Sequence record: NZ_CP072340.1
Strand: one strand, 5' to 3'
DNA from: a plasmid
DNA: 64,000 nucleotides
In this document: positions 2,324 through 23,489 of the stretch, piece after piece
Layout of the letters: each line of letters starts with the position of its first letter
Numbering within the stretch: position 1 is the first letter of the stretch
Program-made: the position numbers and the translations under genes
Notes under the pieces: model-generated
What the model saw: only the letters and a program-made list of their open reading frames with translations
What the model was told of the DNA's origin: nothing
The model's database searches: none

Positions 2324-3553
2324 ATGAAACAAGAGAAAATGAAGGTGTTGCTCTACCTCAAAAAGAGCGGTCTTGACAAGTCGGGCAAGGCTCCGATTAT
2401 GGGACGTATCACACTTGGAAGGAATGTTGCCCAGTTCAGTTGTAAACTCTCCTGCAATCCAGAGTTGTGGAATCCCCGTGAGAGTAGAGTGGACGGCAAG
2501 AGTCGTGAGGCAGTAGAGATAAACGGCAGGTTGGAGAGTTTGCTGTTGTCTGTTCAGTCGGCTTATCAAGCCTTACTTTCCAAAGGTTGCCCATTTGACG
2601 CAACCGATGTAAAGGAACTGTTTCAAGGCAGCGTACAGACACGATGTATGCTTATCGAACGATTGGACATCCTCATCAGGGAGAAGAAAGAACATATTGG
2701 AATTGACATTAAGAGAGAAACAATTTCCAATTACTATACTACCCGTAATAATCTTAGGACATTTATCGAAGACAAGTACAAGGTGGAAGATTTGTCTTTC
2801 TCGCAACTTACAGAAAATTTCATTTATGATTTCAGGGACTACTACTTGAACAAATTAGGGTTTCAGGAAAGTAGTTTCTATGCAGTTGCATCCCAAATAA
2901 AGACCGTATGCAGGTTGGCATACCGTGAAGGATTGGCTGACACCTTATTATTTGCTAATGTAAAGATAGCAAGAGGTGATAAGAAACTCCCAAAGGCACT
3001 TGACAGACGTTCACTTGACAAACTAATGAATACCCACTTCGGAGAGTTGGAGGAAGAAATGGAAACAGCAAGGGATTTGTTTGTTTTTGCCTGTCATACA
3101 GGTGCAGCCTATTGTGATTTAATGGGATTAAGTAAGACACATCTTGTCCGTGATGATGAGGAAAATCTTTGGATGAAGTTCAATAGGCAGAAGACAGGTG
3201 TACTTTGCCGTATTAAGTTGTTGCCCGAAGCGATTAGGATAATAGAGAAGTATCGAAGCGAAGAAAGGGAAACGCTGCTGCCACAGATGAAGTATGCCAC
3301 CTATCAATCGTATCTTAAAGCATTGCGCCTTAGAGTGGGCATTGCCTTTCCCTTTACCACGCATACGGCAAGGCACACCTTTGCTACGCTCATCACGCTT
3401 GAGCAAGGAGTTCCGATTGAAACTGTGAGCAAGATGCTCGGACATAGCAACGTAAGTATGACCGAGCGTTATGCAAAGGTTACACCCCAAAAACTCTTTG
3501 AGGAGTTTAATCGTTTTCTTTCTTTCACGGAGGATATGCAGATGAGTATTTAG
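2324..3553 (+). CDS. Tyrosine recombinase / integrase (first of a tandem pair)
   Basis: C-terminal catalytic region ...TARHTFATLITLEQGVPIETVSKMLGHSNVSMTERYAKV carries the R..H..R..Y motifs of the phage-integrase family. The N-terminus, MKQEKMKVLLYLKKSG...PIMGRITLG, is the arm-binding type seen in Bacteroidales integrases. Confidence 0.9.
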   Translation: MKQEKMKVLLYLKKSGLDKSGKAPIMGRITLGRNVAQFSCKLSCNPELWNPRESRVDGKSREAVEINGRLESLLLSVQSAYQALLSKGCPFDATDVKELFQGSVQTRCMLIERLDILIREKKEHIGIDIKRETISNYYTTRNNLRTFIEDKYKVEDLSFSQLTENFIYDFRDYYLNKLGFQESSFYAVASQIKTVCRLAYREGLADTLLFANVKIARGDKKLPKALDRRSLDKLMNTHFGELEEEMETARDLFVFACHTGAAYCDLMGLSKTHLVRDDEENLWMKFNRQKTGVLCRIKLLPEAIRIIEKYRSEERETLLPQMKYATYQSYLKALRLRVGIAFPFTTHTARHTFATLITLEQGVPIETVSKMLGHSNVSMTERYAKVTPQKLFEEFNRFLSFTEDMQMSI

Positions 3554-3581
3554 CAATAGACATATTAAAACTAAAATCATT

Positions 3582-4859
3582 ATGAGAAGTACATTCAAGA
3601 TACTGTTCTATATCAACAGACAGAAAACTAAGGCAGACGGCAATACCGCCATTCTCTGCCGTATCACCATAGACGGAAAGAACACAGCCATTACCACAGG
3701 CGAAGAGTGCCAGCCTGCCGAGTGGAACTCCAAACAGGGTTTGACAACCAATAGGAAGACCAACCAAAGAATCAATGAGTTCAGGGAATTGGTAGAAAAA
3801 ACCTATCGGGACATACTGACGAGGGACGGAGTGGTAAGTGTGGAACTTATCAAGAACAGTTTGCAAGGCATTGCCACTAACCCCACCACGCTCCTTGCAA
3901 TGAGCAAAGCGGAACTGCAAGCCGTCAAGGAAAGCGTTGGAAAGTCAAGGGCAGAGGGGACTTATCTGAACCTTTACTATTCTGATAAAAATCTCCGAGA
4001 TTTTATCGAAAACAAAGGAGTACAAGACATATCTATCGTCACCATTACGGAGAGTTTGTTCGAGGAATACCGTTTCTTCCTAAAAAAGCGTGGGCTGAAA
4101 GCATCGACTGTCAATACCAATCTCAGTTGGCTGAGCCGACTGATGTTTCGTGCGGTGAGCAGCAGGATTATCCGCTGCAATTCCTTTGAGAACGCCAAGT
4201 ATGAGAAGGAGGAAAAGAAGATACGCTTCTTGCAAAAGGGCGATGTAATGAAACTTATGGCAATGACGATGAACGACAGAGAATCGGAATTGGCACGGCT
4301 GATGTTCGTCTTCTCCTGCTTCACAGGTATGGCTATCGCTGATATGGAAAATTTGGAATACAGGCATATCCAAACGGCAGCGGATGGGCGGAAGTATATC
4401 CGCAAGGAGCGTCAGAAGACAAAGGTTGAGTTTGTCGTACCATTGCACCCGATAGCAGAGGCTATTATCCGCCATTGTCTGGAAGAGCAGAAAGGGAATG
4501 AAGAACAGCAGACGGTGAAAGAAAAAGGTAAAAAACATATCTTTCCCCGTGAGTGCAGCCGGAGCGTGATAGACGGCAGACTGAGTATTGTTGGCAAGGC
4601 TTGCGGTATCAGACAGAGATTGTCGTACCATGTTGCAAGGCATACCTTCGGTACGATGAGCCTAAGTGCAGGAATACCTATTGAGAGTATAGCCAAGATG
4701 ATGGGGCACGCTTCCATATCAAGCACGCAGATTTATGCGCAGGTAACGGACAACAAGATTTCGGAGGATATGGACAGGCTTATTGCCAAACAATCGGCAA
4801 AGGATAAAGAAACTATGGAGAGAGAGGTTTGTGAACCAAACTCTGCTAACTCGTTGTAA
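3582..4859 (+). CDS. Tyrosine recombinase / integrase (second of the tandem pair)
   Basis: ...HVARHTFGTMSLSAGIPIESIAKMMGHASISSTQIYAQV catalytic motif. The N-terminus MRSTFKILFYINRQK...RITIDG is homologous to intA2 and intB2. Confidence 0.9.
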   Translation: MRSTFKILFYINRQKTKADGNTAILCRITIDGKNTAITTGEECQPAEWNSKQGLTTNRKTNQRINEFRELVEKTYRDILTRDGVVSVELIKNSLQGIATNPTTLLAMSKAELQAVKESVGKSRAEGTYLNLYYSDKNLRDFIENKGVQDISIVTITESLFEEYRFFLKKRGLKASTVNTNLSWLSRLMFRAVSSRIIRCNSFENAKYEKEEKKIRFLQKGDVMKLMAMTMNDRESELARLMFVFSCFTGMAIADMENLEYRHIQTAADGRKYIRKERQKTKVEFVVPLHPIAEAIIRHCLEEQKGNEEQQTVKEKGKKHIFPRECSRSVIDGRLSIVGKACGIRQRLSYHVARHTFGTMSLSAGIPIESIAKMMGHASISSTQIYAQVTDNKISEDMDRLIAKQSAKDKETMEREVCEPNSANSL

Positions 4860-5665: not shown

Positions 5666-6046
5666 ATGGAAATAATCGCAGTAGAAAGCCAAGCCTATCA
5701 GGAACTGATAGACAGGCTCAACCGAATAGAGCGGTATGTTGAGCGCACTTCTCATCTTATCCAAGATATAGATGACGAGCTGGAGATGACAACCAAAGAT
5801 CTTATCGGGACTCTGAATGTTTCAGAGTCCACCCTTTATCGCTGGCGCAAGAAACAGTTGGTACGGTATCGCTACACGGAGGGTGGCGATGTACGCTACT
5901 TCTTCAAGTCTATCGTGATAGCCACGAAATGTAACCGACTCCGTGTCTCAGGCATGAGAAACGACGAGGTTCTTGGTCGGCTCAACCGTTTTAAGGACAA
6001 TCTCATCATAAGTTCATGTCTTAATCCTAAAAACCGACAACTATGA
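5666..6046 (+). CDS. HTH_17 / excisionase-family DNA-binding protein (Xis-like)
   Basis: TKDLIGTLNVSESTLYRWRKKQL matches the MerR-like HTH_17 motif found in Bacteroidales Xis-like small proteins. Its stop overlaps the start of the primase gene. Confidence 0.55.
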   Translation: MEIIAVESQAYQELIDRLNRIERYVERTSHLIQDIDDELEMTTKDLIGTLNVSESTLYRWRKKQLVRYRYTEGGDVRYFFKSIVIATKCNRLRVSGMRNDEVLGRLNRFKDNLIISSCLNPKNRQL

Positions 6047-8103
6047 TAGAAAAGGAACAGATTCTTTTGCTTACACAGGGAGGTCTGAATGTGTTTTCCC
6101 ATTTCCTCGGCTTTGAGGTAAACCTTCATCGCAACTTCCGAAGCCCCTTCTATGACGACAGACGGGCTTCCTGCCATATCTACTACGACAGGAAAACTTC
6201 TTCTTACAAATTCTATGATCATGGCGATACCACCTATTCAGGGGATTGCTTCTGGTTTGTGGCAACCCTCCGTAACTTGAACCTGAAAACAAGTTTTCCC
6301 GAAGTCTTGGAAACTATTGTACAAGAACTTGGATTGTATTCTTTATGTGATGGTGAAAAGCATAGCAACCATATCACGTTATCATATAAAAGAACTATCG
6401 TTCCCACTCCTAAGGCTGATATAACCAAGTGTACGGAAGAACGTCCATACAGTTTTGAGATACAGCCTTTTGACGATGGACTGATGAACTATTGGGCGCA
6501 TTATGGTATCCATGAAGATACACTTCGGCTTTTTCGTGTACGGAGTCTTAAACGGTATGATAGCGTATCAGCCGAAGGTAAGAAGTTTGAGCTTCACAGT
6601 TCGCCGACAGAACCGATATTCGCCTATATTGGAAATGGCTATGTCAAGATATATCGCCCTCACAGTCCGAAAATCCGCTTTCTCTATGGCGGGCGGATGC
6701 CTATGACCTATTGTTTCGGCATGGAGCAGATTCCCACCAAAGGAGATATGCTCTTCATTACAGGTGGGGAAAAAGATGTGCTCTCGTTGTATGCGCACGG
6801 GTTCAATGCAATCTGCTTCAACAGTGAAACGGCACAAATACCGGAAAGCATCATAGAGAGCCTTCAACTTCGCTTTCGGCATATCATTCTCTTGTATGAT
6901 GCAGATGAGACGGGTGTACGGGAAGCGCATAGACAAGCTGAACATTTGGCAGAATACAAGGTATTGAATCTTACACTCCCACTTAGTGGAACCAAGGCGG
7001 AAAAGGACATTTCTGATTTCTTTGCCTTAGGCAACGGGGCGAAGGAACTGAAAGAACTGCTTGCCAAGATGTTTACAGACCTATATAGCCAAACCATGAT
7101 GATGCTTCGCTCCTGTGAGATTGACTACGACAATCCACCGGATATTTCCAAGACTGTGGTGGCTGTGAATGGTGTCCCTTTGGGAACGCAGGACAATCTG
7201 TTCTGCATTACCGGAGGTGAGGGTACGGGCAAGAGCAACTATGTAGGAGCCATCCTTGCCGGAGCTTTGGGGAATAAACGGCTGCCGATAGAGAAAACCT
7301 TGGGATTGGAGATTACCGCCAATCCCAAAGACTTGGCAGTCCTACATTATGACACAGAACAGTCCGAGGCTCAACTGCACAAGAATCTGGGCAAGACATT
7401 GCGCCGGGCTTCATTGACGGCAGTACCGAAGTTTTACCATTCACTCTACCTTGCCTCACTCTCTCGTAAGGACCGCTTGAAACTTATCCGTGAAAGTATG
7501 GACTTGTTCCATCACAAGCATGGTGGAATACACCTCGTTGTCATTGATGGTATTGCTGATCTGATACGTTCTGCGAACGATGAAACGGAAAGTATAGCCA
7601 TTGTTGACGAACTTTACCGCTTGGCAGGGATATACAATACTTGTATTATCTGCGTATTGCACTTCGTGCCGAACGGCATCAAACTTCGGGGACATATCGG
7701 CTCGGAACTTCAACGTAAGGCGGCGGGTATCCTTTCCATAGAGAAAGACGACAATCCCGAATACTCGGTCGTAAAGGCGTTGAAAGTGCGTGACGGAAGT
7801 CCGTTGGACGTACCGATGATGCTTTTCGGCTGGGACAAGGAAGAAGACATGCACGTCTATCGTGGTGAGAAGTCCAAGGAGGACAAGGAAAAACGCAAAA
7901 CCGATGAGCTTATTGGCGTTGTCAAAGAAGCCTTCCGAAATTCTTTCAAGCTCACTTACCAAGAACTTTGTGAGGTTCTGATGCGAGAGATGGAAATCAA
8001 GGACAGGACCGCAAAGAAATATATTGCCTATATGAAAGAGCAGCGTATTTTGATACAAGATACAAGTGGGAATTATCAAAAAGGAGAATTATGCCATACT
8101 TAG
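6043..8103 (+). CDS. Primase-helicase fusion (N-terminal zinc-binding/Toprim primase region plus C-terminal P-loop NTPase)
   Basis: The N-terminus has a C...H...C/H cluster ([17 protein letters not shown]...KFYDHGD) and a Toprim-like acidic patch ([10 protein letters not shown]). The C-terminal half has Walker [17 protein letters not shown] and Walker [12 protein letters not shown]. This resembles the primases of Bacteroides mobilizable elements. Confidence 0.7.
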
Positions 8104-8399
8104 ATCAACAGCCAGAAGATACATGGCAGAAACGCCTGTTTGATAAACTGAAGAATATGGAAGACAAGCTCGACCGTCTGCTTGTCCTACGGGAACAAGA
8201 AGTAGATACGACCATTCACCCTCCATTGAAACCCGAATACTTGGATATCATAGATGTCTCCAAAATTTTGAAGGTGGAACAAAAGACCATTTACAACTGG
8301 GTTTGGGCTGGAAAAATTCCTTATCTTAAAGCCAATGGCAGATTACTTTTCCTTCGGAAAGAGATAGATGAAATGCTACGGAAACAAGGGAACTGGTAG
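8091..8399 (+). CDS. HTH_17 / excisionase-family DNA-binding protein
   Basis: [40 protein letters not shown] is the excisionase-type HTH_17 signature. The gene overlaps the primase stop by 13 nt. Confidence 0.6.
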
Positions 8400-8404
8400 G
8401 CACC

Positions 8405-8459
8405 CGTTCATTATTTAATGCTTGTTCAATTTTGTTGAACAAGCATTAAATAATGAACG
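8405..8459. promoter_or_regulatory. 55-bp perfect palindrome (25-bp arms, 5-nt spacer): cgttcattatttaatgcttgttcaa ttttg ttgaacaagcattaaataatgaacg
   Basis: Read directly from the sequence. There is no clean U-tract on either side for a simple terminator. The arms contain the half-site TTGTTCAA/TTGAACAA that recurs downstream. Confidence 0.85.
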
Positions 8460-8480
8460 AAAAAATTTGCAGTTTGATTT

Positions 8481-8537
8481 TTGTTCACTATCTTTGCAGT
8501 GTTCAATCCTATTGAACGACTATAAATATTGAACAAG
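8481..8537 (+). promoter_or_regulatory. Candidate promoter/operator of the cargo cassette: TAtcTTTG -7 box (8489-8496) plus three more TTGTTCA/TTGAACAA half-sites (8481, 8501-8517 palindrome gttcaatcctattgaac, 8529)
   Basis: Read directly from the sequence. The last half-site ends 3 nt before the ATG at 8540. Confidence 0.45.
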
Positions 8538-8539
8538 AT

Positions 8540-9541
8540 ATGTACGGAATACAGATTATAGATCAGGCGGTTAGTGCGATAAGGAGACAGTGGGAGGATT
8601 CTCAAGATGTCATAATCGATGCGCTTCAGCCGGAAACGCCTTCGATGGAACAATACGTCAGAATTATGGGCATAGAGTTCCGATGCCTTGTTGAAAATGA
8701 GATAAATGGAACAAATATCCTGCGCATTGAAGAAAAATCAAAGAGCTGTATGGGGACCTACAAGGGACCTGTCATATTGGTTGCAAGATATGTACAGCCA
8801 TCTGTCTATGGAACTTTGCGTAAAATGGAACTTAACTTTGCTGACACGGCAGGTAACTACAATATACAGTACACGAAGGGCAGGAAAGTGATATTCCACC
8901 TTTCTCACACAGGGGAGAAAGTCCCTGTGAATAACAACAAAAACTATCCTATATTCCAAGAAGCAGGCCTGAAGGTAATCTTTTATCTCTTGCAAGCTCC
9001 TGAGAATGTGGGCAAATCTTTTCGGGAAATCAAGGAGTATAGTGGAGTTTCGATAGGTACTGTCAAAAATGTGATTGATGAATTGGAAGTCCGTAAGTTT
9101 ATTCTCGTAACTCAGAAGAAAAGAGTTCTGAAAAAACGTCGTCTTTTGCTTGATTTATGGTCGGAAAACTATCGTCAGATATTAAAGCCCAAGTTGCTGT
9201 TGAAGCAGCTGGATTTTCGCACACCGGAACAAAAAGAAAAATGGGAAGAAATAGCATTGCCAAATGGTATGTTATGGGGTGGAGAGTGTGCATCTAATTT
9301 ATTGAATGGTTACCTTACTCCGGAACTTTTTGAACTCTATACAGAGACACCTTTCTCCAATCTGATGAAGACCGGCGCAACACGGACTACCGAAGGAGTT
9401 ATTTATATATATCAGAAGTTTTGGAAAGGCGATGTAATGCCCTGCATTTTGATATATGCCGATTTAGTAAGTAGCGGAGACAGCCGTTGTATTGAAGCTG
9501 CAAATAAATTATTAAAAGATGAACTTTCAGATTTCGAGTAA
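8540..9541 (+). CDS. Winged-helix DNA-binding protein, possible AbiEi/MenA-like antitoxin-regulator (family assignment uncertain)
   Basis: 333 aa with an internal wHTH-like segment (SFREIKEYSGVSIGTVKNVIDELEVRKFILV). It sits directly upstream of, and overlaps by 23 nt, a pol-beta nucleotidyltransferase gene. The upstream palindromic operator is consistent with autoregulation. I recognised no catalytic motifs. Confidence 0.4.
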   Translation: MYGIQIIDQAVSAIRRQWEDSQDVIIDALQPETPSMEQYVRIMGIEFRCLVENEINGTNILRIEEKSKSCMGTYKGPVILVARYVQPSVYGTLRKMELNFADTAGNYNIQYTKGRKVIFHLSHTGEKVPVNNNKNYPIFQEAGLKVIFYLLQAPENVGKSFREIKEYSGVSIGTVKNVIDELEVRKFILVTQKKRVLKKRRLLLDLWSENYRQILKPKLLLKQLDFRTPEQKEKWEEIALPNGMLWGGECASNLLNGYLTPELFELYTETPFSNLMKTGATRTTEGVIYIYQKFWKGDVMPCILIYADLVSSGDSRCIEAANKLLKDELSDFE

Positions 9542-10373
9542 GAAGATTGGCAACCCCCTGTTGGTTGAACTGCTAAGAAAAGTCAGTCATTGTTTTGCTG
9601 AGATTGGGCAGGATTTCTTTGTTATCGGGGCTACTGCGCGAGATATTTTAATTCGGCAGTTAGTAGGTATAAGTTCAGGGAGAAAGACGAGGGATTTAGA
9701 CCTCGCCATAGCCATTCCCGATTGGAATGCATTCGAAGAGATTAAGCGGGCATTATTAGCACGAGGGTTTCAAAAAGACGGACAGATGTATCAACGGTTC
9801 TATGATGGCGACTACGAAATTGACATAGTACCATACGGAGATATAGAAAGAGAAGATGGATACATATACTGGCCTCCTGAGGAGGATATAGCTATGTCCG
9901 TTAAGGGGTTTGCTGATGTGCTGAGTGATGCTATTACCGTAACGATTGACAATGAATTCGACATCAAGATAGCATCGTTGCATGGATTATTTGTATTGAA
10001 GTTCAATGCTTGGTTAGACAGGAATATCCAAACGAATAAAGATGCCGTAGATATGGCATTCATTCTGGAAAACTATTTCATTGCTAACTTGAATAGGAAC
10101 TTGCATGCAGAAGTGTATGATTGGGAAGACTTTGATGAGATTGTTGTCGGAGCTTATTGGCTTGCTTATGACATTGTCGGATTTCTATCAAAAGAGCATC
10201 TTTGCCACTATGAGCAATGTCTGCGGAATGAGATAGAGAAAAGAGAAAATAGCAGGCTGATACAACAGGTTATAGATAGTAGCAGTGTTTTTTCTTATGA
10301 GAAACTGCTCCTCGCATTTCAAAAAATGATTGCCGTATTTGATAAAGTTTTGCATGGTGAAGATCCAGATTGA
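9519..10373 (+). CDS. Pol-beta-superfamily nucleotidyltransferase, AbiEii/MenT (DUF1814)-like candidate toxin
   Basis: IGATARD...RKTRDLDLAIAIP matches the G[GSA]...DxD nucleotidyltransferase core. A third acidic motif lies downstream (EIDIVPYGD). A C-terminal R..KD..DM block resembles AbiEii motif IV. The length of 284 aa fits AbiEii-family proteins. Confidence 0.6.
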   Translation: MNFQISSKKIGNPLLVELLRKVSHCFAEIGQDFFVIGATARDILIRQLVGISSGRKTRDLDLAIAIPDWNAFEEIKRALLARGFQKDGQMYQRFYDGDYEIDIVPYGDIEREDGYIYWPPEEDIAMSVKGFADVLSDAITVTIDNEFDIKIASLHGLFVLKFNAWLDRNIQTNKDAVDMAFILENYFIANLNRNLHAEVYDWEDFDEIVVGAYWLAYDIVGFLSKEHLCHYEQCLRNEIEKRENSRLIQQVIDSSSVFSYEKLLLAFQKMIAVFDKVLHGEDPD

Positions 10374-10989
10374 AAGCTTAAGTATTCCGGCTGGTAAAGA
10401 AAATGGAGATTACATTCTCCAACGAGAATTGCCTAATGGAGCAACACTCATTCTACTTGCAGATGGGATGGGTGGTTTGTCATTGCCGGAAAGTGCTTCA
10501 AAAATTGTTTGCGAAGCTATCTCAGAATATTTCGTAAAAACCGATATAATTGATTGTACGGAACATATCCTCAGGAGCATCAAATATGCTGATGAGCGTC
10601 TGGCTGCTTTTTGCAAGGAGAAGAAATCCAAGATGGGTGCGGCTTTACTTCTTGTATATATCAGTGATGCTATGCTCTTCTACACATCTTTGGGAGATGT
10701 GCGCCTATACTATCGAGACAAACAAGGAGAAGTAATTCAACTAACAAACGATGATACCATTATGCAAGGAGCAGACACTTATCTGACAGCTTGCATTGCG
10801 GGAAGAGGTTTTAGAAACCCCATTCAGGTTCAACGTTTGCCATTGAATATGGGTGATTCTCTGCTGCTTTGTAGTGATGGCTATTACAAAGTTCATGATA
10901 TTCCCCATTGTTTTCACCATAAAGAGCAGACACCTCCAACATTGGTAGATGACGACAGCTCTGTTGTCAGAATAGAAATTATACAATGA
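10330..10989 (+). CDS. PP2C-family Ser/Thr protein phosphatase (PPM)
   Basis: Metal-binding motifs LADGMGG, LGDVRLY (GDSR-like) and LCSDG are present; the size of about 215 aa fits. The start overlaps the nucleotidyltransferase gene by 44 nt; an alternative ATG at 10354 would still overlap. Confidence 0.85.
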   Translation: MPYLIKFCMVKIQIESLSIPAGKENGDYILQRELPNGATLILLADGMGGLSLPESASKIVCEAISEYFVKTDIIDCTEHILRSIKYADERLAAFCKEKKSKMGAALLLVYISDAMLFYTSLGDVRLYYRDKQGEVIQLTNDDTIMQGADTYLTACIAGRGFRNPIQVQRLPLNMGDSLLLCSDGYYKVHDIPHCFHHKEQTPPTLVDDDSSVVRIEIIQ

Positions 10990-11075: not shown

Positions 11076-12668
11076 CTACATCTTCCACTTTGGTTTTGAG
11101 ATAATAACTTTGCTCGTAATGTCATTGTTGTCGGATACATTCTGCTGACTATTGTTCTTGGGAGATGTGGGCAAAGGTATGTTGTCTGTGTTTTTTGAGA
11201 ATGAATTCTTATAAGAACGGGGTTCTGATATATCATCTACTGATTTACTTTGCTGTATGGCACCATGCTGTGCCTCTTGCCCTATATCCTCTTTTTCCTC
11301 CTCCGGTGGAGCAAGGGTAAGTGCAATTCGCCTATCCAGTTCGGCTGCCTCGCCTTTGAGCGTGCGAAGCTCTTCTTCCTTTTTCCAAGAGCTGCCCGCA
11401 ATGTTGGTGTAAACGTCTTTATTGGCTGCGACCTTTTCCATCTCCTTTTCGTGCGACTCTATTACCTTCGGGATACGCTCCAAGGCATTGATAAAGTTCT
11501 GGCAAGCAAGTTTCGGATCGGATGCCAGCTTACCGTTATTATAGGTATAGTAGATACTCTCCTGCCCCTTCACAAAGAAACGATTTACAGAGCAATCAAA
11601 CAAGTCCTTGGAAGTGCTCTCCGTCTTAACCATAATAGAAAAGCCATAAATCTCACCGATTTTGTTGTATTCCCCCTTGGTGCGTGCTTTCTCGTCTATT
11701 TCCTGCAGACGTGCAGCAATGGCCTTGATATCGGTGCTGTCTTCCACACCTTTGATAGTCAGCTTATTGATAGGCACACCTTCCTCATCACGCTCCACAC
11801 GCTTCTCAAAGAGAGCCAAGTCAGACTGTGCCTCCTTGACTTTGTCTGTATGGAAAGACACGGAACTCTCAATCTCTGCCAGCTTGCCCGTTGCGGCATC
11901 ACGCTCACGGAGAAAGTTCTTGCGCTCTGATTCCAAGGTGGTAATCTTCTTATCCAATCTTGCTTTTTCCAAAAGGTCGGTATTGCCTGAAAGTACTGCT
12001 ACATATTCTGAAAAGTTCATACCGCTGTCCTCGTCCATCGATCCCTCGTCAATGGTACGGCTCCCTAAAGTGTTCGTCTTTAACTGGTTGATGAAAAGCT
12101 GCTTGTTGTGCAGCAGGTTGAACTTGTAACTGTCCAACGAGCGTTCCACGGCATAAATAATCACATCGACCTTGTTGTCGGCAAACTCCTTGGCAACAAG
12201 ATTACCTTTACGGATGGCACGCCCGTTACGCTGCTCTAAGTCCGATGGTCGCCACGGCGTGTCAAGTTGATGGACCGCTACTGCCCGCTGCTGGGCATTC
12301 ACACCTGTGCCCAACATGGACGTAGAACCGAAGATAATGCGAATATCACCACGGTTCATCGCATCTACCATTGCCTTCTTTGCTTTCTCGTTCTTGCACT
12401 CCTGAATGAAGCGTATCTCATAAGATGGAATATGATAGTCTTCTACCAACTTTCTCTTGATTTCCGAATAGATATTGAAGTCTCCACCAGGCTTGTAAGT
12501 ACCCAAGTCTGAGAAAACAAACTGCGTTCCTTTCTGTGCATCGTACTTTTGGTAATAGTCATTGAGCATTTTGGCACAGTGACTTGCCTTGTTGTCGATA
12601 TGATCTGAGTAAGCATTTTCATCAATCATGCGTAAATCAAGGCTCATCTTCCTCGCATAATCAGTCAT
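11076..12668 (-). pseudogene. 3' fragment of the large N6-methyltransferase/SNF2-helicase gene (helicase C-terminal domain), cut off from its 5' part by element A
   Basis: Helicase motif VI QRNGRAIRKGN and motif V-like GSTSMLGTGVNA are present. The first residues MTDYARK duplicate the last target-derived residues ...ATDYARK of ORF 24075..28808. Confidence 0.8.
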
Positions 12669-12916
12669 TAAGAATTAAGGGAAATAGGGGGAAACGCAAG
12701 GAATGTAACTATTTGAAATAATATCATTTAGCATTTTCTTACTATTTTGAGGGTAAGCAAGAACGAGCATCAAACGGCAGGAGTTCCGTTACCAAATCGT
12801 AACCCATCAGGGAAAAAGCAAAAAGGGGTTACGAATTGAATGTAAACAACTGTGTCATAGGTTTTTATTCTTCATCTTTCATTATTCTGCATCGCTCAGG
12901 AATACTTGTTCGTATG

Positions 12917-12934
12917 TACCTTTGCAAGCAAAGG
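12917..12934 (+). promoter_or_regulatory. TAccTTTG -7 box overlapping the 16-bp palindrome cctttgcaagcaaagg, about 25 nt upstream of intA1
   Basis: Read directly from the sequence. The same arrangement is conserved in element B at 30305-30322 (cctttgcatgcaaagg). Confidence 0.45.
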
Positions 12935-12958
12935 AAATTTAGAAAAAACGACAGAAAA

Positions 12959-14179
12959 ATGAAAGAAAACAAACTCAAAGTATCGTTCTTCGTTCAGGCG
13001 AAACGAACCGACAAGAAAGGACTTGTGCCTGTCATTGGGCGAATCTCCGTTGGCAGAACCCATTCGGGCTTCTCCACCAAGTGTAAGACTCCGCTCGCTC
13101 TTTGGGACAGCCGTAAGCAACGGCTCATCGGTAAGAGCAGCATGGCTGTGTCCGTCAATCAGAAACTCGGCGAATGCACCGCACTTATCCACGCACGCTT
13201 TCACGAACTCAGTGAAAGGAAAGAAACTTTCACAGCCACAGACGTGAGGGATGCCTATCAAGGACAAATCCACCGCCAAACCCTGCTCTTGGAGAGTTTC
13301 GGGGAGTATCTCACACAGACAAAGGAGCGCATAGGCATTGATAGAGCTTTAAAGACATTCAAACTCCGTACCTACCAGCTATCCCTGCTTCGTGAGTATG
13401 TGCAGAAGAAGCACAAAGTAAGCGACATTCCACTCTCACAGCTGGACAAAGCATTTATCGAGGGCTTCGAGTATTATCTCACCATTGACCGAAAGCTGAA
13501 ACGCAGCAGCGTATCGAGTGCCTTATCCACCTTGCAGACCATCGTCCGCATGGCGGTAAAGAAAGGTGTGCTGGACTTCTATCCTTTTTTGGGATACAGT
13601 TACGAGCGACCAAAGGGTGAACCAAGAAGCATTACGCAGGAAGAACTTGAGCGCATCATCGAGTTGAAGATTGAATGGGAGAACTATCGTATTGTCCGTG
13701 ATTTGTTCGTCTTCTCCTGCTTTTCAGGGCTTGCCATCTCCGATGTCCGCAATCTGAGAGAGGAAAACATTGTCTTGGAAGAAGGCGAACTCTGCATCAA
13801 GGGCAGCCGAATGAAGACCAAAACTCCGTATCGTGTACAGGTACTTCCTCCTGCTTGGGCGATAATGGAGCGTTACAGAGGAAAGCGTGCAGGCTTTGTC
13901 TTTGACGTACCGACTACCGACATTATCCTCAATGGCATGCACCACATACAGAGAAACATCGGCATGGAAAGTCCGCTGACCTTCCACATGGCTCGGCACA
14001 CCTTTGCGTCGCTAATCACACTCTCGGCAGGTGTACCTATCGAAACGGTGAGCCGTATGCTCGGACACACCAACCTGAGAACAACACAGGTATATGCAGC
14101 GGTTTCCTCCGAAAGAATCCATCGGGACATGCAGATAGTGCAGCAGCGCATACAAGATACATTCACCTTAAAACTTTGA
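12959..14179 (+). CDS. Tyrosine recombinase / integrase (element A, first of tandem pair)
   Basis: ...HMARHTFASLITLSAGVPIETVSRMLGHTNLRTTQVYAAV catalytic motif. The start was set at the conserved ATG (MKENKLKVSFF...) shared with element B, not the upstream in-frame extension 12836. Confidence 0.9.
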   Translation: MKENKLKVSFFVQAKRTDKKGLVPVIGRISVGRTHSGFSTKCKTPLALWDSRKQRLIGKSSMAVSVNQKLGECTALIHARFHELSERKETFTATDVRDAYQGQIHRQTLLLESFGEYLTQTKERIGIDRALKTFKLRTYQLSLLREYVQKKHKVSDIPLSQLDKAFIEGFEYYLTIDRKLKRSSVSSALSTLQTIVRMAVKKGVLDFYPFLGYSYERPKGEPRSITQEELERIIELKIEWENYRIVRDLFVFSCFSGLAISDVRNLREENIVLEEGELCIKGSRMKTKTPYRVQVLPPAWAIMERYRGKRAGFVFDVPTTDIILNGMHHIQRNIGMESPLTFHMARHTFASLITLSAGVPIETVSRMLGHTNLRTTQVYAAVSSERIHRDMQIVQQRIQDTFTLKL

Positions 14180-14183
14180 CCTC

Positions 14184-15452
14184 ATGACACGTAGTACATT
14201 CAAGACACTCTTTTATATCAATCGCTCCAAAGAGAAAAAGAACGGCAAATGCCCGATTATGGGACGCATCACCATAGACGGTGAGCAGGTGCAATACAGC
14301 ACGGGCAAGGAAATCGCTCCCGAACTTTGGGACAGTCGTAAGGGACGATGCAAGGGTATAGGCGAAGAGACAAAGGAAATCAACCGCTATTTACAAAGCA
14401 AAGAGGAACAAGCCAAAGCGAAGTATCAAGAATTAGTCTGGCAACGTGGCTATATTACCGCTGAGTTGCTGAAGCGTGAACTCATGGAAGAAGACAAGCC
14501 CAAAGGTTTTCTTATGGAGGAAGCACGACTTTTCATAGAGGAAAAGCGTCCTTGCGTAGGAATAACGGTAGCCAAGCCGACCTTTGCCAACTACATCTAT
14601 GCCACACAACTCATTGAGGCTTATTTGCGTGAACGCTTGGGGCTGGAGGATATTCGCTACTCATCGCTTGACTATGGTTTCATCGAGGGGCTGGACTTCT
14701 ATCTTAAATCAGAGCGCAAACTCTCCCTTGCCACCATTCAGATTGTTGTCATTTTCCTGAGGAAACTCATCGGCATAGGTCAGCAGAAGAAGTATATCCG
14801 CATCGATCCGTTTGCAGACTACAAAGCAGAACTTCCACACCGCACAAGACGTTATCTCACTACGGAGGAACTACAACGAGTATTGCAAACACCCATCATT
14901 GACAGACAATTCGAGCGAGCAAGGCAACTATTCCTTTTCTGTGCCTTCACCGGTTTGGCTCGTGTAGATATGCAACGGCTCAAACCGAAGCATATCATCT
15001 ATAATGCTGACGGCACGGCGGAAATCCGCATCAAAAGGCAGAAAACAGACGTGGAAGCCATCATTCCACTCCTGCCCATTGCCACGCAAATCCTTTCGCT
15101 CTATATCAAGGACAAGAAAGCAGACGACTTGATATTCCCCAATCTCACAATAAGGAAAGCATCCTTTGCGTGTGTGAACATCGGGCAGATATGCCGGATA
15201 GAGAAAGGCTTGACCTTTCACATGGCTCGCCACACATTCTCAACCACGATTTGCCTTTCCAACGGCATCTCAATGGAAACGCTCAGCAAGATGCTCGGAC
15301 ACAGCAATATAGGTACGACACAAATCTACGGAAAGATAACCGACCACAAGATACAAGAGGATATGACCGCACTCACTGACAGGGAGCATTCTGTATTTGA
15401 GGGTTATTGTGAGTCGATAGCACGGCAGAACGTTCCATTGCAACAAGCATAA
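14184..15452 (+). CDS. Tyrosine recombinase / integrase (element A, second of tandem pair)
   Basis: ...HMARHTFSTTICLSNGISMETLSKMLGHSNIGTTQIYGKI catalytic motif; N-terminus MTRSTFKTLFYINRSKEKKNGKCPIMGRITIDG. Confidence 0.9.
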   Translation: MTRSTFKTLFYINRSKEKKNGKCPIMGRITIDGEQVQYSTGKEIAPELWDSRKGRCKGIGEETKEINRYLQSKEEQAKAKYQELVWQRGYITAELLKRELMEEDKPKGFLMEEARLFIEEKRPCVGITVAKPTFANYIYATQLIEAYLRERLGLEDIRYSSLDYGFIEGLDFYLKSERKLSLATIQIVVIFLRKLIGIGQQKKYIRIDPFADYKAELPHRTRRYLTTEELQRVLQTPIIDRQFERARQLFLFCAFTGLARVDMQRLKPKHIIYNADGTAEIRIKRQKTDVEAIIPLLPIATQILSLYIKDKKADDLIFPNLTIRKASFACVNIGQICRIEKGLTFHMARHTFSTTICLSNGISMETLSKMLGHSNIGTTQIYGKITDHKIQEDMTALTDREHSVFEGYCESIARQNVPLQQA

Positions 15453-18872: not shown

Positions 18873-21086
18873 TCAGTTACCCAATTCTAATTGATTCTTC
18901 ACTAAGGCAAAATATTTACCACGTTTAGCAGTCAGATCCTCGTGTGTACCTACCTCTACAATTTTACCTTCATCCAAAACTACAATTTGGTCGGCATCGC
19001 GAACAGTGGAAAGGCGGTGTGCCACTACTACAACTGTTTTTCCCTTGTAGAACTCCGAGAGGTTTTCTGTAATGGCTCGTTCATTGTTGGCATCGAGGGC
19101 ATTGGTCGCTTCATCCAGAAAGACAAACATTGGATTCTTATAGACTACCCTTGCTATCAAAATGCGTTGTCGTTGTCCCTGACTGATGCCCTGTCCGTCC
19201 TGTCCTATCATCGTGTTGTAAGCCAAAGGCAGGGCTTCGATGTAGTCAGCGATGTTTGCCACACGGGCAGCATGGCGGATACGTTCGATGTCGGGTTCAT
19301 CATCCGATATGGCAATATTCCTCGCAATGGTATCGGAGAAGAGATACCCCTCCTGCATTACCGCACCGCATTGGCTTCGCCACCAGCCGAGATTATATTC
19401 ATTCAGATTGGCACTGCCGACTTGAACGCTTCCTTTCAGAGGTTCATAGAACCCCAACAAGAGTTTAACGAGTGTGGTCTTTCCGCTTCCACTCGCCCCC
19501 ACGATTGCGGTTACTTTGCCGTTAGGTATGGAGAGATTGATGTCTGAGAGAATATCTTTTGGGCTGTAGATGTCGTATTTGAAAGAGAGGTCTTTTATCT
19601 TGAGGGAATGTCCCTCAAGTGTTTCGTCAATGTAGGCATTCCGTGTTCTTTTCGCATTCTCCTCGTTAGTCTCTGTATGAATTTCGTTCATACGGTCAAG
19701 GCTGATGCTCACGTCTTGCCAAGAATAGATAAACTGAATGAGCTGTTCCACGGGGCTGTTGAGCTGTCCAATGATGTACTGCACTGCCAGCATCATACCA
19801 AGCGTCATATTGCCTTGTATGACAGAAGTTGCAGCAAAAACGGTAATCAAGATATTTTTTATCTCGTTGATGGTGATGCTTCCTGCCTGTTGTATTTGCT
19901 GAAGATTAAGACTTTGCAGATTGACCTTGAAAAGGTCGGCTTGCACGTCCTCCCATTCCCAACGCTTGCGCTGCTCACATCCCTGCAACTTGATTTCCTG
20001 CATACCACCTATGAGTTGGTAGGTAACGTTGCGGTTTCGCCCTGCCTGCTCGAAATATTTGTAGTCCAACTGCCTGCGCTTTTTGAGAAAAAGGATAATC
20101 CATCCGGCATAAAGCGATGTCCCCGAGAGGAATACAAGGAAGATGCCAAGATTATAGACTGCAAGGACGACACCGAAGACAAGGAAGGTGAAGAACGAGA
20201 ATAGCAGGCTCAGACTGCTTGAGGTGAGGAACTGCTCCACACGTCGGTGGTCTTCAATACGTTGCAAGAGGTCGCCCATCAGTTTGGTGTCGAAGAACTT
20301 CATCGGTAGTTTCATCAATTTGATGAAGAAATCCGAGATGAGCGAGATATTGATACGTGTGGAGATGTGCAGGAGTATTTTGGAGCGGATAAAGTCGATG
20401 GCGGTACGGCTGAAAAGTAGCATCATTTCTGCCAAGAGCACTAACCATACAAAGCCTATATCCTTTCCTCCTATACCTGTATCAACGATGGCTTGAGTGA
20501 GGAAGGGGAAAATGAGTTGCAGGAGCGAGCCGAGCAACAGACCGAGAATGAGTTGCGTAAAGAATCTCTTGTACTTTTTGAGATAGTTCCAAAGGAACTT
20601 CGCGCGGCTTTGAGTCGGTGCTGTTTCTGTATCGTTTTGAGCATAGAACTGTTCTGTCGGTTCAAGAAGAAGGGCGACACCTTTCTCCTCACCGTTGGTC
20701 TTAGTACTTACCCAATGCTCGCAGAACTCCTCTTGGGTATAGGAAACAAGTCCTTTGCCAGGGTCGGCAACATATACGGTATATTTTCCTTTTTTGTGCT
20801 TTTTTATTTTATAGACAACAACAAAATGATTTTGATTCCAATGAACAATGCAGGGCAAAGGAACTTCAAATGCAAGTGTATCAAAACTTAATCGACCTCC
20901 AACAGTCTTGAAACCGATAGTTTCTGCAGCCTTACTGATACCAAGCAAAGAAACTCCCTCTCGATTTAATGAACAAACTGTTCTAATTGAATCAATATTA
21001 AAATCGCGACCATAATGCTTAACTATCATTGCTAAGCAAGAAGGTCCACAATCTTTTGCGTCACGTTGTCTAACTAAGGTGTACAT
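18873..21086 (-). CDS. Peptidase-C39-domain ABC transporter (double-glycine leader-cleaving bacteriocin exporter)
   Basis: N-terminal C39 Cys motif DCGPSCLAMIVKHYG; 6-TM core; Walker A GASGSGKTTLVKLL; ABC signature LSQGQRQRILIAR; Walker B VFLDEATNALD. Confidence 0.9.
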   Translation of the reverse strand: MYTLVRQRDAKDCGPSCLAMIVKHYGRDFNIDSIRTVCSLNREGVSLLGISKAAETIGFKTVGGRLSFDTLAFEVPLPCIVHWNQNHFVVVYKIKKHKKGKYTVYVADPGKGLVSYTQEEFCEHWVSTKTNGEEKGVALLLEPTEQFYAQNDTETAPTQSRAKFLWNYLKKYKRFFTQLILGLLLGSLLQLIFPFLTQAIVDTGIGGKDIGFVWLVLLAEMMLLFSRTAIDFIRSKILLHISTRINISLISDFFIKLMKLPMKFFDTKLMGDLLQRIEDHRRVEQFLTSSSLSLLFSFFTFLVFGVVLAVYNLGIFLVFLSGTSLYAGWIILFLKKRRQLDYKYFEQAGRNRNVTYQLIGGMQEIKLQGCEQRKRWEWEDVQADLFKVNLQSLNLQQIQQAGSITINEIKNILITVFAATSVIQGNMTLGMMLAVQYIIGQLNSPVEQLIQFIYSWQDVSISLDRMNEIHTETNEENAKRTRNAYIDETLEGHSLKIKDLSFKYDIYSPKDILSDINLSIPNGKVTAIVGASGSGKTTLVKLLLGFYEPLKGSVQVGSANLNEYNLGWWRSQCGAVMQEGYLFSDTIARNIAISDDEPDIERIRHAARVANIADYIEALPLAYNTMIGQDGQGISQGQRQRILIARVVYKNPMFVFLDEATNALDANNERAITENLSEFYKGKTVVVVAHRLSTVRDADQIVVLDEGKIVEVGTHEDLTAKRGKYFALVKNQLELGN

Positions 21087-21152
21087 TTATGATATATAAA
21101 ACTATACTAAAAATACTATACTAAAGTAAATATTAAATTTGCAAAAATATTA

Positions 21153-23489
21153 TCACTGCAAATTCAATCGTTTCTGATTGCTTTCATTGGTGTTCAATCT
21201 TCTAAATGTATCCTTAAATCCATTGAATGTATATTTAATGGTCAGTAAAAGAAAGCGACTATCGAAATCAGGAGTTGTTTGTACTTTGATATTATCTATG
21301 AATACATTTGTTTTTGATATAGATTTATGTAATAAATCGTTACCTCTCAAGATAATTTGTAAACGATTATCTTTGAAGAAATTTTGCCGTATCCAAAAAG
21401 ATAAACCATACTTAGGTGATTCCAATACTCCCAAGAAACCATTTTTTGAAGAGTAAGATAAATCTATAGACGCCATCATTTGCTTAGTAATGTCAAATTG
21501 ATTGACCAAGGTAAATGCAATATTTGGATTTCTAGGTGCATAAGTATCTAAGTATTTAATTTTTGTTGGAATATAACGAAATGAAGCATTATAAGCAAAT
21601 CTATATATACCGAATTTATCTGAATAACTTGCATTAAACAACCATGTATTGTAATCTACATTGACGGGAGAATTCAATAGAGCTCCATTTAATTCAGAAT
21701 TTTCGGTGAACTTCCACAAAACAGCATTAGCGTCATGTATGTATCTTCCCTGTAAGACAAATTTATTCTTCCATACCATAGATAAGGAATAAATGTATCT
21801 ATCATTAGATTTAAGAGATGAATTACCTTTTTCATATAAATAAGGATTTATATAATGCAAAAGAGGGGAAATATCCCTAAACATTGGTCGTGAATTCTGA
21901 GTAATAATACTTCCAATGAATAGCAAATCGGGATTTATCTGCCATTGGGCTGTTATACGAGGAAAGAGTTTAAAGTATGTATCAGTAATACTATTTGTTT
22001 TATTTTGCTCATATTCAGAATGAAAAATGCTTCCTCTAACCCCTGCGGTGATAAAGAGTTTATTCCATTTTTGATTTATAGTTGCAAATAAACTGAGTTC
22101 ATCATCTTGAAGATTACTCGTTATATTATAGAATGGAGTCGTAGTATTCTCAAAAATGTAATTTGAATAGCCTTTGTTCAGAATAGAATTTCCTTGAAAG
22201 CCCATATTTAGAGAGAAACCCTTTTTCGAGTTGTAGTCGTACTCTATCTTTGTATTAAATGCGTTATAGTCATTTTTACCATTTATCCAAGAACGGTTTT
22301 TACTGTTTGATACTAAATCTATCTCTGATTTTGTTTTAGCGTAGAAATAACCGCCAGAAACAGATAGTTGTTGCTTATCTGTCATTGTATAATTTACCAA
22401 CAAATCGGCATTGGCAGAAATATTACGACTTCTTTCATCTTGATGAGTGTTGGAATATAGTGTATTCAGACCATATTCATAGTTATACTCATCTCCTTGG
22501 GTATTCGCTTTCTTATTGGAGATATTTATATCACCCTGAAATGTTATATTAAATTTTTGATTGGGTCTGTAACTGAAACTTTCGACAATATGGTGAGCAG
22601 GCTTGGAAAGAATTTCATTATTGTAAGAGATGGAAGACCGTTCCGTTTTCCCTTTAGGGCTTAATACATCGTATTGATTGGTACCTGTGTTATCTTCATT
22701 GAGGTATGAAAAATTATAAGACAATAAATTATCCCATTTCTTTTTTGATAAAGAAATTCTCAATACATCCTCTTCTGTATACCGCCGTCCGAACAAAGAA
22801 TTATGTTCCACCTGAGCAGAAAAGTAATCTGTTAATTGTTGGTTTGTTGTAATAGAAATAATACAACCATATTGAGCCGAATATTTAGCTGGTGGATAGT
22901 AATTAACATTTACCGTTTTTATTTGTTCAGGACGGAGCGTACCGATTCTATCGTATGATTTTTGTTCTACTCCATTCAATATATACAAAGGTGTGCCTCC
23001 TGATATAGGTACAACTCTTCCACCGGTCGCCAACATTCCTGGAAGAAAAGCAAGAACATCTGCAACTTCGGGTAATTTTTTTAACTCTGATTTTGAGACG
23101 TCTATTTCAAATGTTCCTTCTGAAACTTTATAGACTGCTCTTTTTCCTTTAACTATAACCTCTTGCAACGTGTTGGAATTCGGTTCTAACTGGATAACAG
23201 TTGGAAGAGGAATAGAGACTCGTGCTTGTTTATATCCCATAAATCTGACAGCAATAAATTTACCATCAGTTCCTTCTTTGCTTATATTGAACACCCCTTT
23301 TGAATCAGTTGTTGTACTTTTTAAAATTTCTCCTTCTTCTGTAATTAATAGTACGGTGGCATAGGGTAAAGGTTCTTGTACCTCATCAACTACGGTAGCT
23401 GATAACATCAATGTATCTTGAGGTACTATTGCTGCTTGAGATTGAAAACTGAAAACAGAAATTAAAATTAAAATTAAAACACGAAACAT
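21153..23489 (-). CDS. TonB-dependent-receptor-like outer-membrane protein with N-terminal carboxypeptidase-regulatory-like domain
   Basis: Signal peptide MFRVLILILISVFSFQSQA. CarbopepD_reg-like segment (ATVLLITEEGEILKSTTTDSKGVFNI), then a plug-like and a long beta-strand-rich region. Confidence 0.55.
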   Translation of the reverse strand: MFRVLILILISVFSFQSQAAIVPQDTLMLSATVVDEVQEPLPYATVLLITEEGEILKSTTTDSKGVFNISKEGTDGKFIAVRFMGYKQARVSIPLPTVIQLEPNSNTLQEVIVKGKRAVYKVSEGTFEIDVSKSELKKLPEVADVLAFLPGMLATGGRVVPISGGTPLYILNGVEQKSYDRIGTLRPEQIKTVNVNYYPPAKYSAQYGCIISITTNQQLTDYFSAQVEHNSLFGRRYTEEDVLRISLSKKKWDNLLSYNFSYLNEDNTGTNQYDVLSPKGKTERSSISYNNEILSKPAHHIVESFSYRPNQKFNITFQGDINISNKKANTQGDEYNYEYGLNTLYSNTHQDERSRNISANADLLVNYTMTDKQQLSVSGGYFYAKTKSEIDLVSNSKNRSWINGKNDYNAFNTKIEYDYNSKKGFSLNMGFQGNSILNKGYSNYIFENTTTPFYNITSNLQDDELSLFATINQKWNKLFITAGVRGSIFHSEYEQNKTNSITDTYFKLFPRITAQWQINPDLLFIGSIITQNSRPMFRDISPLLHYINPYLYEKGNSSLKSNDRYIYSLSMVWKNKFVLQGRYIHDANAVLWKFTENSELNGALLNSPVNVDYNTWLFNASYSDKFGIYRFAYNASFRYIPTKIKYLDTYAPRNPNIAFTLVNQFDITKQMMASIDLSYSSKNGFLGVLESPKYGLSFWIRQNFFKDNRLQIILRGNDLLHKSISKTNVFIDNIKVQTTPDFDSRFLLLTIKYTFNGFKDTFRRLNTNESNQKRLNLQ

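Follow-up and report, generated by a model that had tools for sequence, protein, structure and literature searches.

Why should a predicted toxin-antitoxin (TA) pair carry a protein phosphatase of its own? This question is raised by a plasmid locus in sequence record NZ_CP072340.1, of which a stretch of 64,000 nucleotides (nt), hereafter called the window, was analysed. At positions 8405-10989, a large palindrome is followed by three plus-strand open reading frames (ORFs), 8540..9541 (333 amino acids, aa), 9519..10373 (284 aa) and 10330..10989 (219 aa), all of them present as listed in an initial annotation made from the sequence alone. This annotation had read them as an operon coding for an AbiEi-type winged helix-turn-helix (wHTH) protein, an AbiEii/MenT-like nucleotidyltransferase (NTase) and a PP2C phosphatase, the last being a candidate for resetting a phosphorylated toxin. 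We report here that the three genes form a conserved unit, and that the PP2C is probably the long-postulated enzyme that switches a phosphate-silenced toxin back on. The genes are as follows.

8540..9541, plus strand: gene 1, AbiEi_2-family predicted antitoxin and autorepressor, 333 aa (Pfam PF09952, E value 4e-18).
9519..10373, plus strand: gene 2, DUF1814/AbiEii MenT1-like NTase, putative toxin, 284 aa.
10354..10989, plus strand: gene 3, minimal flap-less PP2C (PPM) Ser/Thr phosphatase, 211 aa from ATG 10354, in an ORF open from TTG 10330.

In the window, genes 1 and 2 share 23 nt, as first described. The overlap of 44 nt given for genes 2 and 3 had to be corrected, because the gene 3 homologues are 200-212 aa long and their alignment begins only at residue 9 of the ORF that opens at TTG 10330. 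The true start is almost certainly ATG 10354, which brings this overlap down to 20 nt.

Profile and structure searches, which the initial annotation had named beforehand as a possible source of refutation, placed all three proteins in the families it had predicted. Gene 2 matches the Pfam AbiEii family PF08843 (35.8 bits for a cutoff of 22.5, E value 1.1e-8), and the best PDB sequence for the profile of the 37-sequence gene 2 alignment is MenT1 (8AN4), so that the assignment to the pol-beta AbiEii/MenT NTases holds. Residues G37, A38, R41, T57, D59, D61, W69, D102, P105, G107, W118, P119, K161 and D178 are invariant across 37 relatives sharing 28-73% identity. The pol-beta NTase fold is present, and so are its catalytic residues: G-[GSA], DxD, a third acid, a Lys and an Asp towards the C-terminus. 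In the profile-to-PDB alignment, RKT57RD59LD61 of gene 2 falls on RFT39RD41VD43 of MenT1, and K161 and D178 fall on K137 and D152. An extra helical domain occupies the C-terminal part of the protein (~190-284).

Among the invariant residues, T57 deserves particular attention. It is a Ser/Thr located two residues before the DxD motif, at the position of MenT1 T39, MenT3 S78 and AbiEii T65, and is therefore a conserved candidate phospho-acceptor. Another site had been suggested at first, namely the pair of serines in GISSGRK, as possibly relevant to regulation. This pair is not conserved among gene 2 relatives and was abandoned, the invariant residue being T57.

Gene 1, expected to be an AbiEi-type wHTH protein, proved to be a member of the AbiEi_2 family. 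It is made of an N-terminal domain (~1-140), a wHTH (~145-195, with a weak HTH match at 145-194) and the AbiEi_2 domain (197-325). Proteobacterial genes annotated as type IV TA system AbiEi family antitoxins are homologous to gene 1 along its full length, N-terminal domain included. This N-terminal domain (8540-8960 in the window) is conserved from Bacteroidales to Proteobacteria, with invariant D102, G105, N106 and G125, and no match to it was found in Pfam, PADLOC or PDB. For the protein as a whole, a profile search of PDB returned nothing credible, and a single-sequence PDB search returned a designed HTH repeat only.

Gene 3 is a PP2C, as announced. It matches Pfam PP2C_2 (PF13672) with an E value of 2.7e-16 (60.2 bits, cutoff 24) and the Stp1/IreP model of NCBIfam with an E value of 4e-21 (75.6, to be compared with an equivalog cutoff of 230). 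Its AlphaFold2 (AF2) model has a predicted local distance difference test (pLDDT) value of 94. The best Foldseek matches of this model are SaSTP of S. agalactiae (2PK0; template modelling score, TM, 0.85), then PstP of M. tuberculosis (1TXO/2CM1). A total of 166 PDB matches were obtained at E <= 1e-3, and the top 50 are all PPM protein phosphatases. In a family of 24 sequences, numbered from ATG 10354, residues D19, D37-G38, G114, D133, D175-G176 and D200 are invariant, and all metal-binding aspartates and motifs are retained in gene 3. Compared to the ordinary PP2Cs P0364 and P0366, gene 3 is shorter by ~20 residues at the flap and by another ~20 close to the C-terminus, so that it is devoid of the flap subdomain that bacterial PP2Cs of the Stp1/PstP type usually have.

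We then asked whether these three genes belong together. Scanning a single genome for each species with a pattern derived from 10 closer NTase sequences, we collected 80 Bacteroidales loci in which the NTase is 46-98% identical to gene 2. Gene 1 lies upstream of the NTase in all 80, and the PP2C lies downstream of it in ~62 of the ~77 loci that have room for it. The order AbiEi_2-NTase-PP2C_2 is found at NTase homologues of 73%, 63% and 60% identity, whose contexts are an integrase/primase element (Porphyromonas levii), the same type of element (Tannerella-like contigs) and a position between housekeeping genes; the triad was also found adjoining RteC. In 77 loci all three ORFs are complete. 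There, the overlap of genes 1 and 2 measures exactly 23 nt in 72 cases, and genes 2 and 3 overlap or lie at most 5 nt apart in every case. Adjacency of NTase and PP2C persists in unrelated genomic contexts down to 46% identity for the NTase and 28% for the PP2C, so that the neighbourhood survey proposed with the initial annotation came out in favour of a conserved association.

The three proteins have also diverged together. Their pairwise identities are correlated (mirror-tree r of 0.93-0.96), and in 999 Mantel permutations the observed value was never attained; co-divergence of the PP2C with the NTase is as tight as that of gene 1 with the NTase. When the search was started from the PP2C, members of the flap-less subfamily turned up in the AbiE cassette only: the homologues P0303 and P0358 (36% identity) lie in the same triad, and P0332 (35% identity) lies at a contig end, just 3' of a fragment matching the C-terminus of gene 2. 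Because the triad recurs in unrelated contexts with overlaps of fixed length, because its proteins diverge together and because this PP2C subfamily was seen nowhere else, the three genes must be regarded as a unit and not as a chance fusion.

Distant NTase relatives (29-37% identity), found on Vibrio, Paraburkholderia and Pantoea plasmids and in one metagenomic representative, are two-gene AbiEi/AbiEii pairs, which points to an addition of the PP2C within the Bacteroidales clade. Within the clade, the 13 loci without a PP2C do not group together on the NTase tree but fall among PP2C-bearing neighbours, and one of them (L053) keeps the initial 19 codons of the PP2C reading frame. Residues G37, A38, R41, T57, D59, D61, D102, K161, D175 and D178 are intact in 18 of 18 PP2C-less NTases. 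Repeated loss of the PP2C next to an intact toxin gene is what is expected of an accessory activator rather than of an essential antidote, since the loss of an antidote would not be tolerated.

At L087, genes 1 and 2 occur without a PP2C, and two genes for Hanks-type Ser/Thr protein kinases lie 0.8 kb and 2.5 kb downstream of them on that strand (6647-8299, Pkinase, E value 1.7e-47, and 8379-10028). At L043, a calcineurin-like metallophosphoesterase gene (Metallophos PF00149, 5881-6684) starts 41 nt after the NTase, in the slot of the PP2C. We considered it as a non-homologous replacement of the PP2C and rejected this idea: among 2234 relatives, stand-alone in unrelated contexts (restriction-modification/RhuM and HTH genes), none adjoins an AbiEii gene, so that the adjacency looks coincidental.

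Upstream of the triad, the following predicted regulatory features were found.

8405..8459: distal operator O1, four GTTCA/TGAAC half-sites, at 8406 and 8424 (rightward) and at 8436 and 8454 (leftward).
8423-8441: O1 core, TGTTCAAT-ttt-GTTGAACA, 1 mismatch to the family motif.
8466..8496, plus strand: putative Bacteroidetes-type promoter, TTTG (-33, 8466-8469), 19 nt, then TATCTTTG (-7 box, 8489-8496).
8481..8536: proximal operator O2, four half-sites, at 8483 and 8501 (rightward) and at 8513 and 8530 (leftward).
8500-8518: O2 core, TGTTCAAT-cct-ATTGAACG, 1 mismatch to the family motif.

The large palindrome noticed initially is real. It is a perfect inverted repeat, with arms of 25 nt (8405-8429 and 8435-8459) that are 100% complementary around a loop of 5 nt, and its RNA fold has an energy of -36.6 kcal/mol (z = -8.9 relative to shuffled sequences). 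The operator motif of the family, TGTTCAWT-N3-AWTGAACA, has 2 matches in the window for 0.11 expected, their cores 77 nt apart, and GTTCA/TGAAC pentamers occur eight times within 146 nt for a background of 2.25 per kb. Of 81 non-redundant sequences taken upstream of gene 1, 76 contain at least one site and 58 contain two, spaced by 76-77 nt in 52 of these 58; the remaining 857 kb of locus sequence contain 1 match. Outer and inner half-sites are kept in loci where the intervening sequence has diverged. Judged by this pattern, the big palindrome is a lineage-specific extension of a conserved predicted operator, whose half-sites are universal.

In the window and in most homologous loci, the proximal operator core is preceded by a TAnnTTTG box at a distance of exactly 11 nt. 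The -33/-7 layout found here corresponds to the Bacteroides promoter consensus. O2 encloses the -7 box and would cover the likely transcription start. Autorepression by gene 1 via O1 and O2 is the natural reading of these predicted operators, as for the AbiEi of S. agalactiae. We also considered that the hairpin might be an intrinsic terminator of the upstream HTH_17 gene. This was rejected: no T-run follows it on either strand, a terminator scan made no call, and the extended arms are specific to a lineage while the half-sites are universal. As a separate observation, the loop (8430-8434) reads 'ttttg' in the window and in L014 and L016, and 'caaaa', its reverse complement, in Prevotella denticola (L012), with identical arms. 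The palindrome loop is thus inverted between elements that are otherwise 98-99% identical.

What the phosphatase may do is suggested by the biochemistry of related toxins. MenT1, MenT3 and AbiEii are tRNA-modifying NTase toxins, silenced by an antitoxin-induced auto-phosphorylation at T39, S78 and T65, respectively (PMC11375011; bioRxiv 10.64898/2026.01.19.700257). The initial annotation had described the AbiEi-like antitoxin of MenAT3 as phosphorylating a serine of the toxin; the antitoxin is now considered to induce auto-phosphorylation of the toxin and not to act as a kinase. Removal of the phosphate has been obtained in vitro: MenT3-P was dephosphorylated by PstP, slowly and unspecifically (PMC7205606), and AbiEii-P was fully dephosphorylated by SaSTP, with activity restored (bioRxiv 10.64898/2026.01.19.700257). 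Both groups state that the in vivo phosphatase for phospho-silenced DUF1814 toxins is unknown.

We propose that the cassette is a three-component TA module of the AbiE/MenAT type, serving abortive infection or addiction, in which the PP2C would erase the phosphate of the toxin. Gene 2 would be a MenT1-like toxin that, by homology, adds nucleotides to tRNA 3' ends and blocks translation. Gene 1 would have two roles: binding to O1 and O2, it would repress the operon; binding to the toxin, it would induce auto-phosphorylation of T57 in the active site and thereby neutralise it, as for AbiEi, MenA1 and MenA3. Gene 3 would be a dedicated eraser, stripping the phosphate from T57. While gene 1 is bound, it probably shields the phospho-site from the phosphatase. 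Once gene 1 is removed, titrated or destabilised, the pool of silenced toxin could be re-armed without new synthesis, possible triggers being phage infection or loss of the element. Taken from end to end, this is the mechanism towards which we lean, with modest confidence.

Several points weigh against it. T57 is invariant with or without a PP2C, hence carries no signal specific to the phosphatase, and about one in five relatives of the clade, as well as all distant relatives examined, lack the PP2C. For MenT4, a lack of phosphorylation by MenA4 is reported (bioRxiv 10.64898/2026.01.19.700257), and the COG4861/AbiEi_2 antitoxin family, to which gene 1 belongs, is without a characterised member or a solved relative. 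Antitoxin-induced auto-phosphorylation is for gene 1 an extrapolation from antitoxins that are either non-homologous (MenA1) or distant (AbiEi/MenA3). Finally, an eraser that is co-translated and constitutively active would undo the silencing, so that gene 3 must be held in check in some way not visible here.

The main rival explanation accepts the unit and changes the target. In it, the PP2C would be a sensor or signal input whose substrate is not the toxin but gene 1, as a phospho-regulated antitoxin and repressor, or else a host or phage phosphoprotein. The absence of the flap, which usually shapes substrate choice, would suit such a role, and the conserved 140-aa N-terminal domain of gene 1, with its D102, G105, N106 and G125, offers a possible regulatory target. 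The two Ser/Thr kinase genes downstream of the PP2C-less pair of L087 speak in the same direction, as does a conservation of T57 that is independent of the presence of the PP2C. Against these points, precedent in the superfamily exists for phosphorylation of the toxin only (PMC11375011, PMC7205606), the cassette is without a kinase gene, and the PP2C subfamily, seen only in the triad, tracks the divergence of the NTase no less closely than gene 1. We regard this alternative as unlikely, if still worth carrying along.

A second rival turns the phosphatase into a second antitoxin. Phosphodiesters linking a protein to a nucleoside monophosphate (NMP) can be hydrolysed by PP2C-fold enzymes, of which SidD is an example, and the partner enzyme in the cassette is a nucleotidyltransferase. 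Gene 3 could then be a SidD-like de-nucleotidylase removing the NMP adducts laid by gene 2, in a relationship recalling that of DarG to DarT. A faint match of gene 3 to the deAMP_SidD model of NCBIfam (E value 0.069) goes in this direction, but it amounts to 13 bits for a cutoff of 50, to be set against an E value of 4e-21 for the Stp1 family, and the 50 best structural matches of gene 3, all of them protein phosphatases, do not include SidD. Identity of gene 3 as a SidD-like deAMPylase was rejected on this score and these structural neighbours. As to the role of second antitoxin more generally, the characterised relatives of the toxin act on tRNA and not on protein, and repeated loss of the PP2C with NTase catalytic residues intact is incompatible with an essential antidote. 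This makes the second rival quite improbable.

Less probable again is a cassette of regulated resistance cargo, in which gene 2 would be a resistance or housekeeping nucleotidyltransferase resembling ANT(2'') or LnuA. Both enzymes do score well against the gene 2 profile, as expected for a minimal NTase fold, and we consider this explanation weak. As for three unrelated cargo genes adjacent by chance, the lack of a PP2C in ~1 in 5 members of the clade and in every distant two-gene relative is in their favour, but the neighbourhood survey, with its unrelated contexts, fixed overlaps, co-divergence and exclusive PP2C subfamily, effectively refutes them and leaves this possibility next to nil.

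The reading we retain, a TA module with its own eraser, applies to a cassette that travels. Its hosts are oral and gut Bacteroidales (Prevotella, Alloprevotella, Hallella, Porphyromonas and Tannerella), and only 6 of 2.9 million viral contigs carry the clade, which is thus not primarily phage-borne. Around the triad, the window contains the following features.

2324-4859: first tandem tyrosine-integrase pair.
6043-8103: Toprim/AAA_25 primase-helicase, upstream of the cassette.
8091-8399: HTH_17 excisionase-like gene, upstream of the cassette.
11076-12668, minus strand: Helicase_C ORF, 530 aa, C-terminal remnant of a ~2000-aa methyltransferase/helicase.
12836-15452: second tandem tyrosine-integrase pair.
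15505, 17227 and 17836: DUF1896, DUF3408 and MobC, after the second integrase pair.
18873-23489, minus strand: C39-peptidase ABC exporter (bacteriocin-type), adjoining a gene for a TonB-dependent-like outer-membrane beta-barrel.

The cargo position assigned to the cassette at the outset, directly after a replication and excision module, is borne out by the primase-helicase, the HTH_17 gene and the integrase pairs, and the surrounding genes fit a Bacteroidales integrative element of which the cassette would be cargo. Segment 4519-12665 of the window, which includes an HTH gene, the primase-helicase, the excisionase-like gene, the triad and the helicase remnant, shares 94-99% DNA identity with Prevotella denticola (L012), Hallella seregens (L013) and Alloprevotella rava (L014), which indicates recent transfer between genera. 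Two other loci, L017 and L021, share only ~8333/8453-10996 of the window, i.e. the operators and the three genes, so that the cassette also moves as a module. In the Tannerella-like contigs L003-L007, a classical AbiEi_3/AbiEii pair (PF11459/PF17194 and PF08843, E value 6e-26) lies directly after the triad (7641-9318), and two different AbiE-type systems are there in tandem.

On the other side of the cassette, the methyltransferase/helicase is full-length (~2000 aa) in L003-L006, and only its remnant is present in the window and in P. levii (L001), where it ends at the point where the second integrase pair begins. A truncated helicase abutting an integrase pair, itself followed by DUF1896, DUF3408 and MobC, suggests that a second integrative element was inserted beside the first. 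The C39-peptidase ABC exporter region lies downstream of the mobilisation genes of this second element and has no relation to the AbiE cassette.

How does the cassette compare with known systems? It shares with AbiE and MenAT a predicted DUF1814 toxin, the pol-beta motifs, the position of the candidate acceptor residue, and an upstream overlapping gene for an AbiEi-family wHTH protein. It differs from them in four respects. MenAT1 (Rv0078A/B) and the wider MenAT/AbiE DUF1814 systems (Type IV, now reclassified as Type VII) consist of two genes, whereas the cassette has three, with a translationally coupled PP2C here and in ~80% of the clade. The antitoxin is of the AbiEi_2 type (PF09952), and not a MenA1 or a COG5340 AbiEi/MenA3. 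The toxin has an extra C-terminal helical domain of ~90 aa, and the operator is a composite of four half-sites, duplicated 77 nt apart. Compared to SaSTP (Stp1, 2PK0) and PstP (1TXO), gene 3 has the same fold (TM 0.79-0.85) and the same metal-binding aspartates. It is 30-40 residues shorter, without the flap and the C-terminal insert, and whereas these chromosomal, multi-substrate housekeeping enzymes are encoded away from TA loci, gene 3 is encoded within a TA operon and found only there.

The closest catalogued entry is PDC-M21 of PADLOC, an unpublished phage-defence candidate. Its B model matches 27 of 37 NTase family members (best E value 1.3e-9) and its C model 19 of 24 PP2C family members (best E value 9.6e-12); the matches of the window proteins are weak (1.2e-7 for B, ~1e-5 for C), and the A model has no match in gene 1 or in any of 29 homologues. 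The pairing of NTase and PP2C had therefore already been flagged computationally as a defence candidate. We found no paper on the composition or function of PDC-M21, and the literature on AbiEii, DUF1814, Type VII TA or nucleotidyltransferase TA systems searched together with PP2C or phosphatase describes no operon-encoded PP2C. The remark in the initial annotation that no such tripartite arrangement was known thus stands as far as papers are concerned, and needs tempering in that distant relatives of two of the components had been catalogued.

Other systems with extra components, HipBST, DarTG and HEPN/MNT (Type VII), obey a common logic, in which a covalent modification sets toxin activity and additional components tune it; their protein families are unrelated to those of the cassette. 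Among tripartite or eraser-containing TA systems, we know of none that pairs antitoxin-induced phospho-silencing with a phosphatase encoded in the operon. We therefore advance, tentatively, that this could be the first TA system to encode its own eraser: a portable phospho-switch by which stockpiled toxin might be re-armed within seconds, independently of host phosphatases. Linkage of the PP2C to the toxin gene, conserved across many Bacteroidales genera, gives independent genetic support to the phosphatase-reactivation model. If the cassette is indeed such a switch, it answers genetically how phospho-silenced DUF1814 toxins of Type VII become activated, and explains why a cassette hopping between genera brings its own phosphatase. 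Carried by oral and gut Bacteroidales, such cassettes are of interest as well for the way in which elements are maintained and phages are resisted in the human microbiome. Compared to the two-gene AbiE and MenAT systems, this one would also assemble in three compact genes the inducer of the phosphate mark, its target and its eraser, which can be reconstituted and mutated together.

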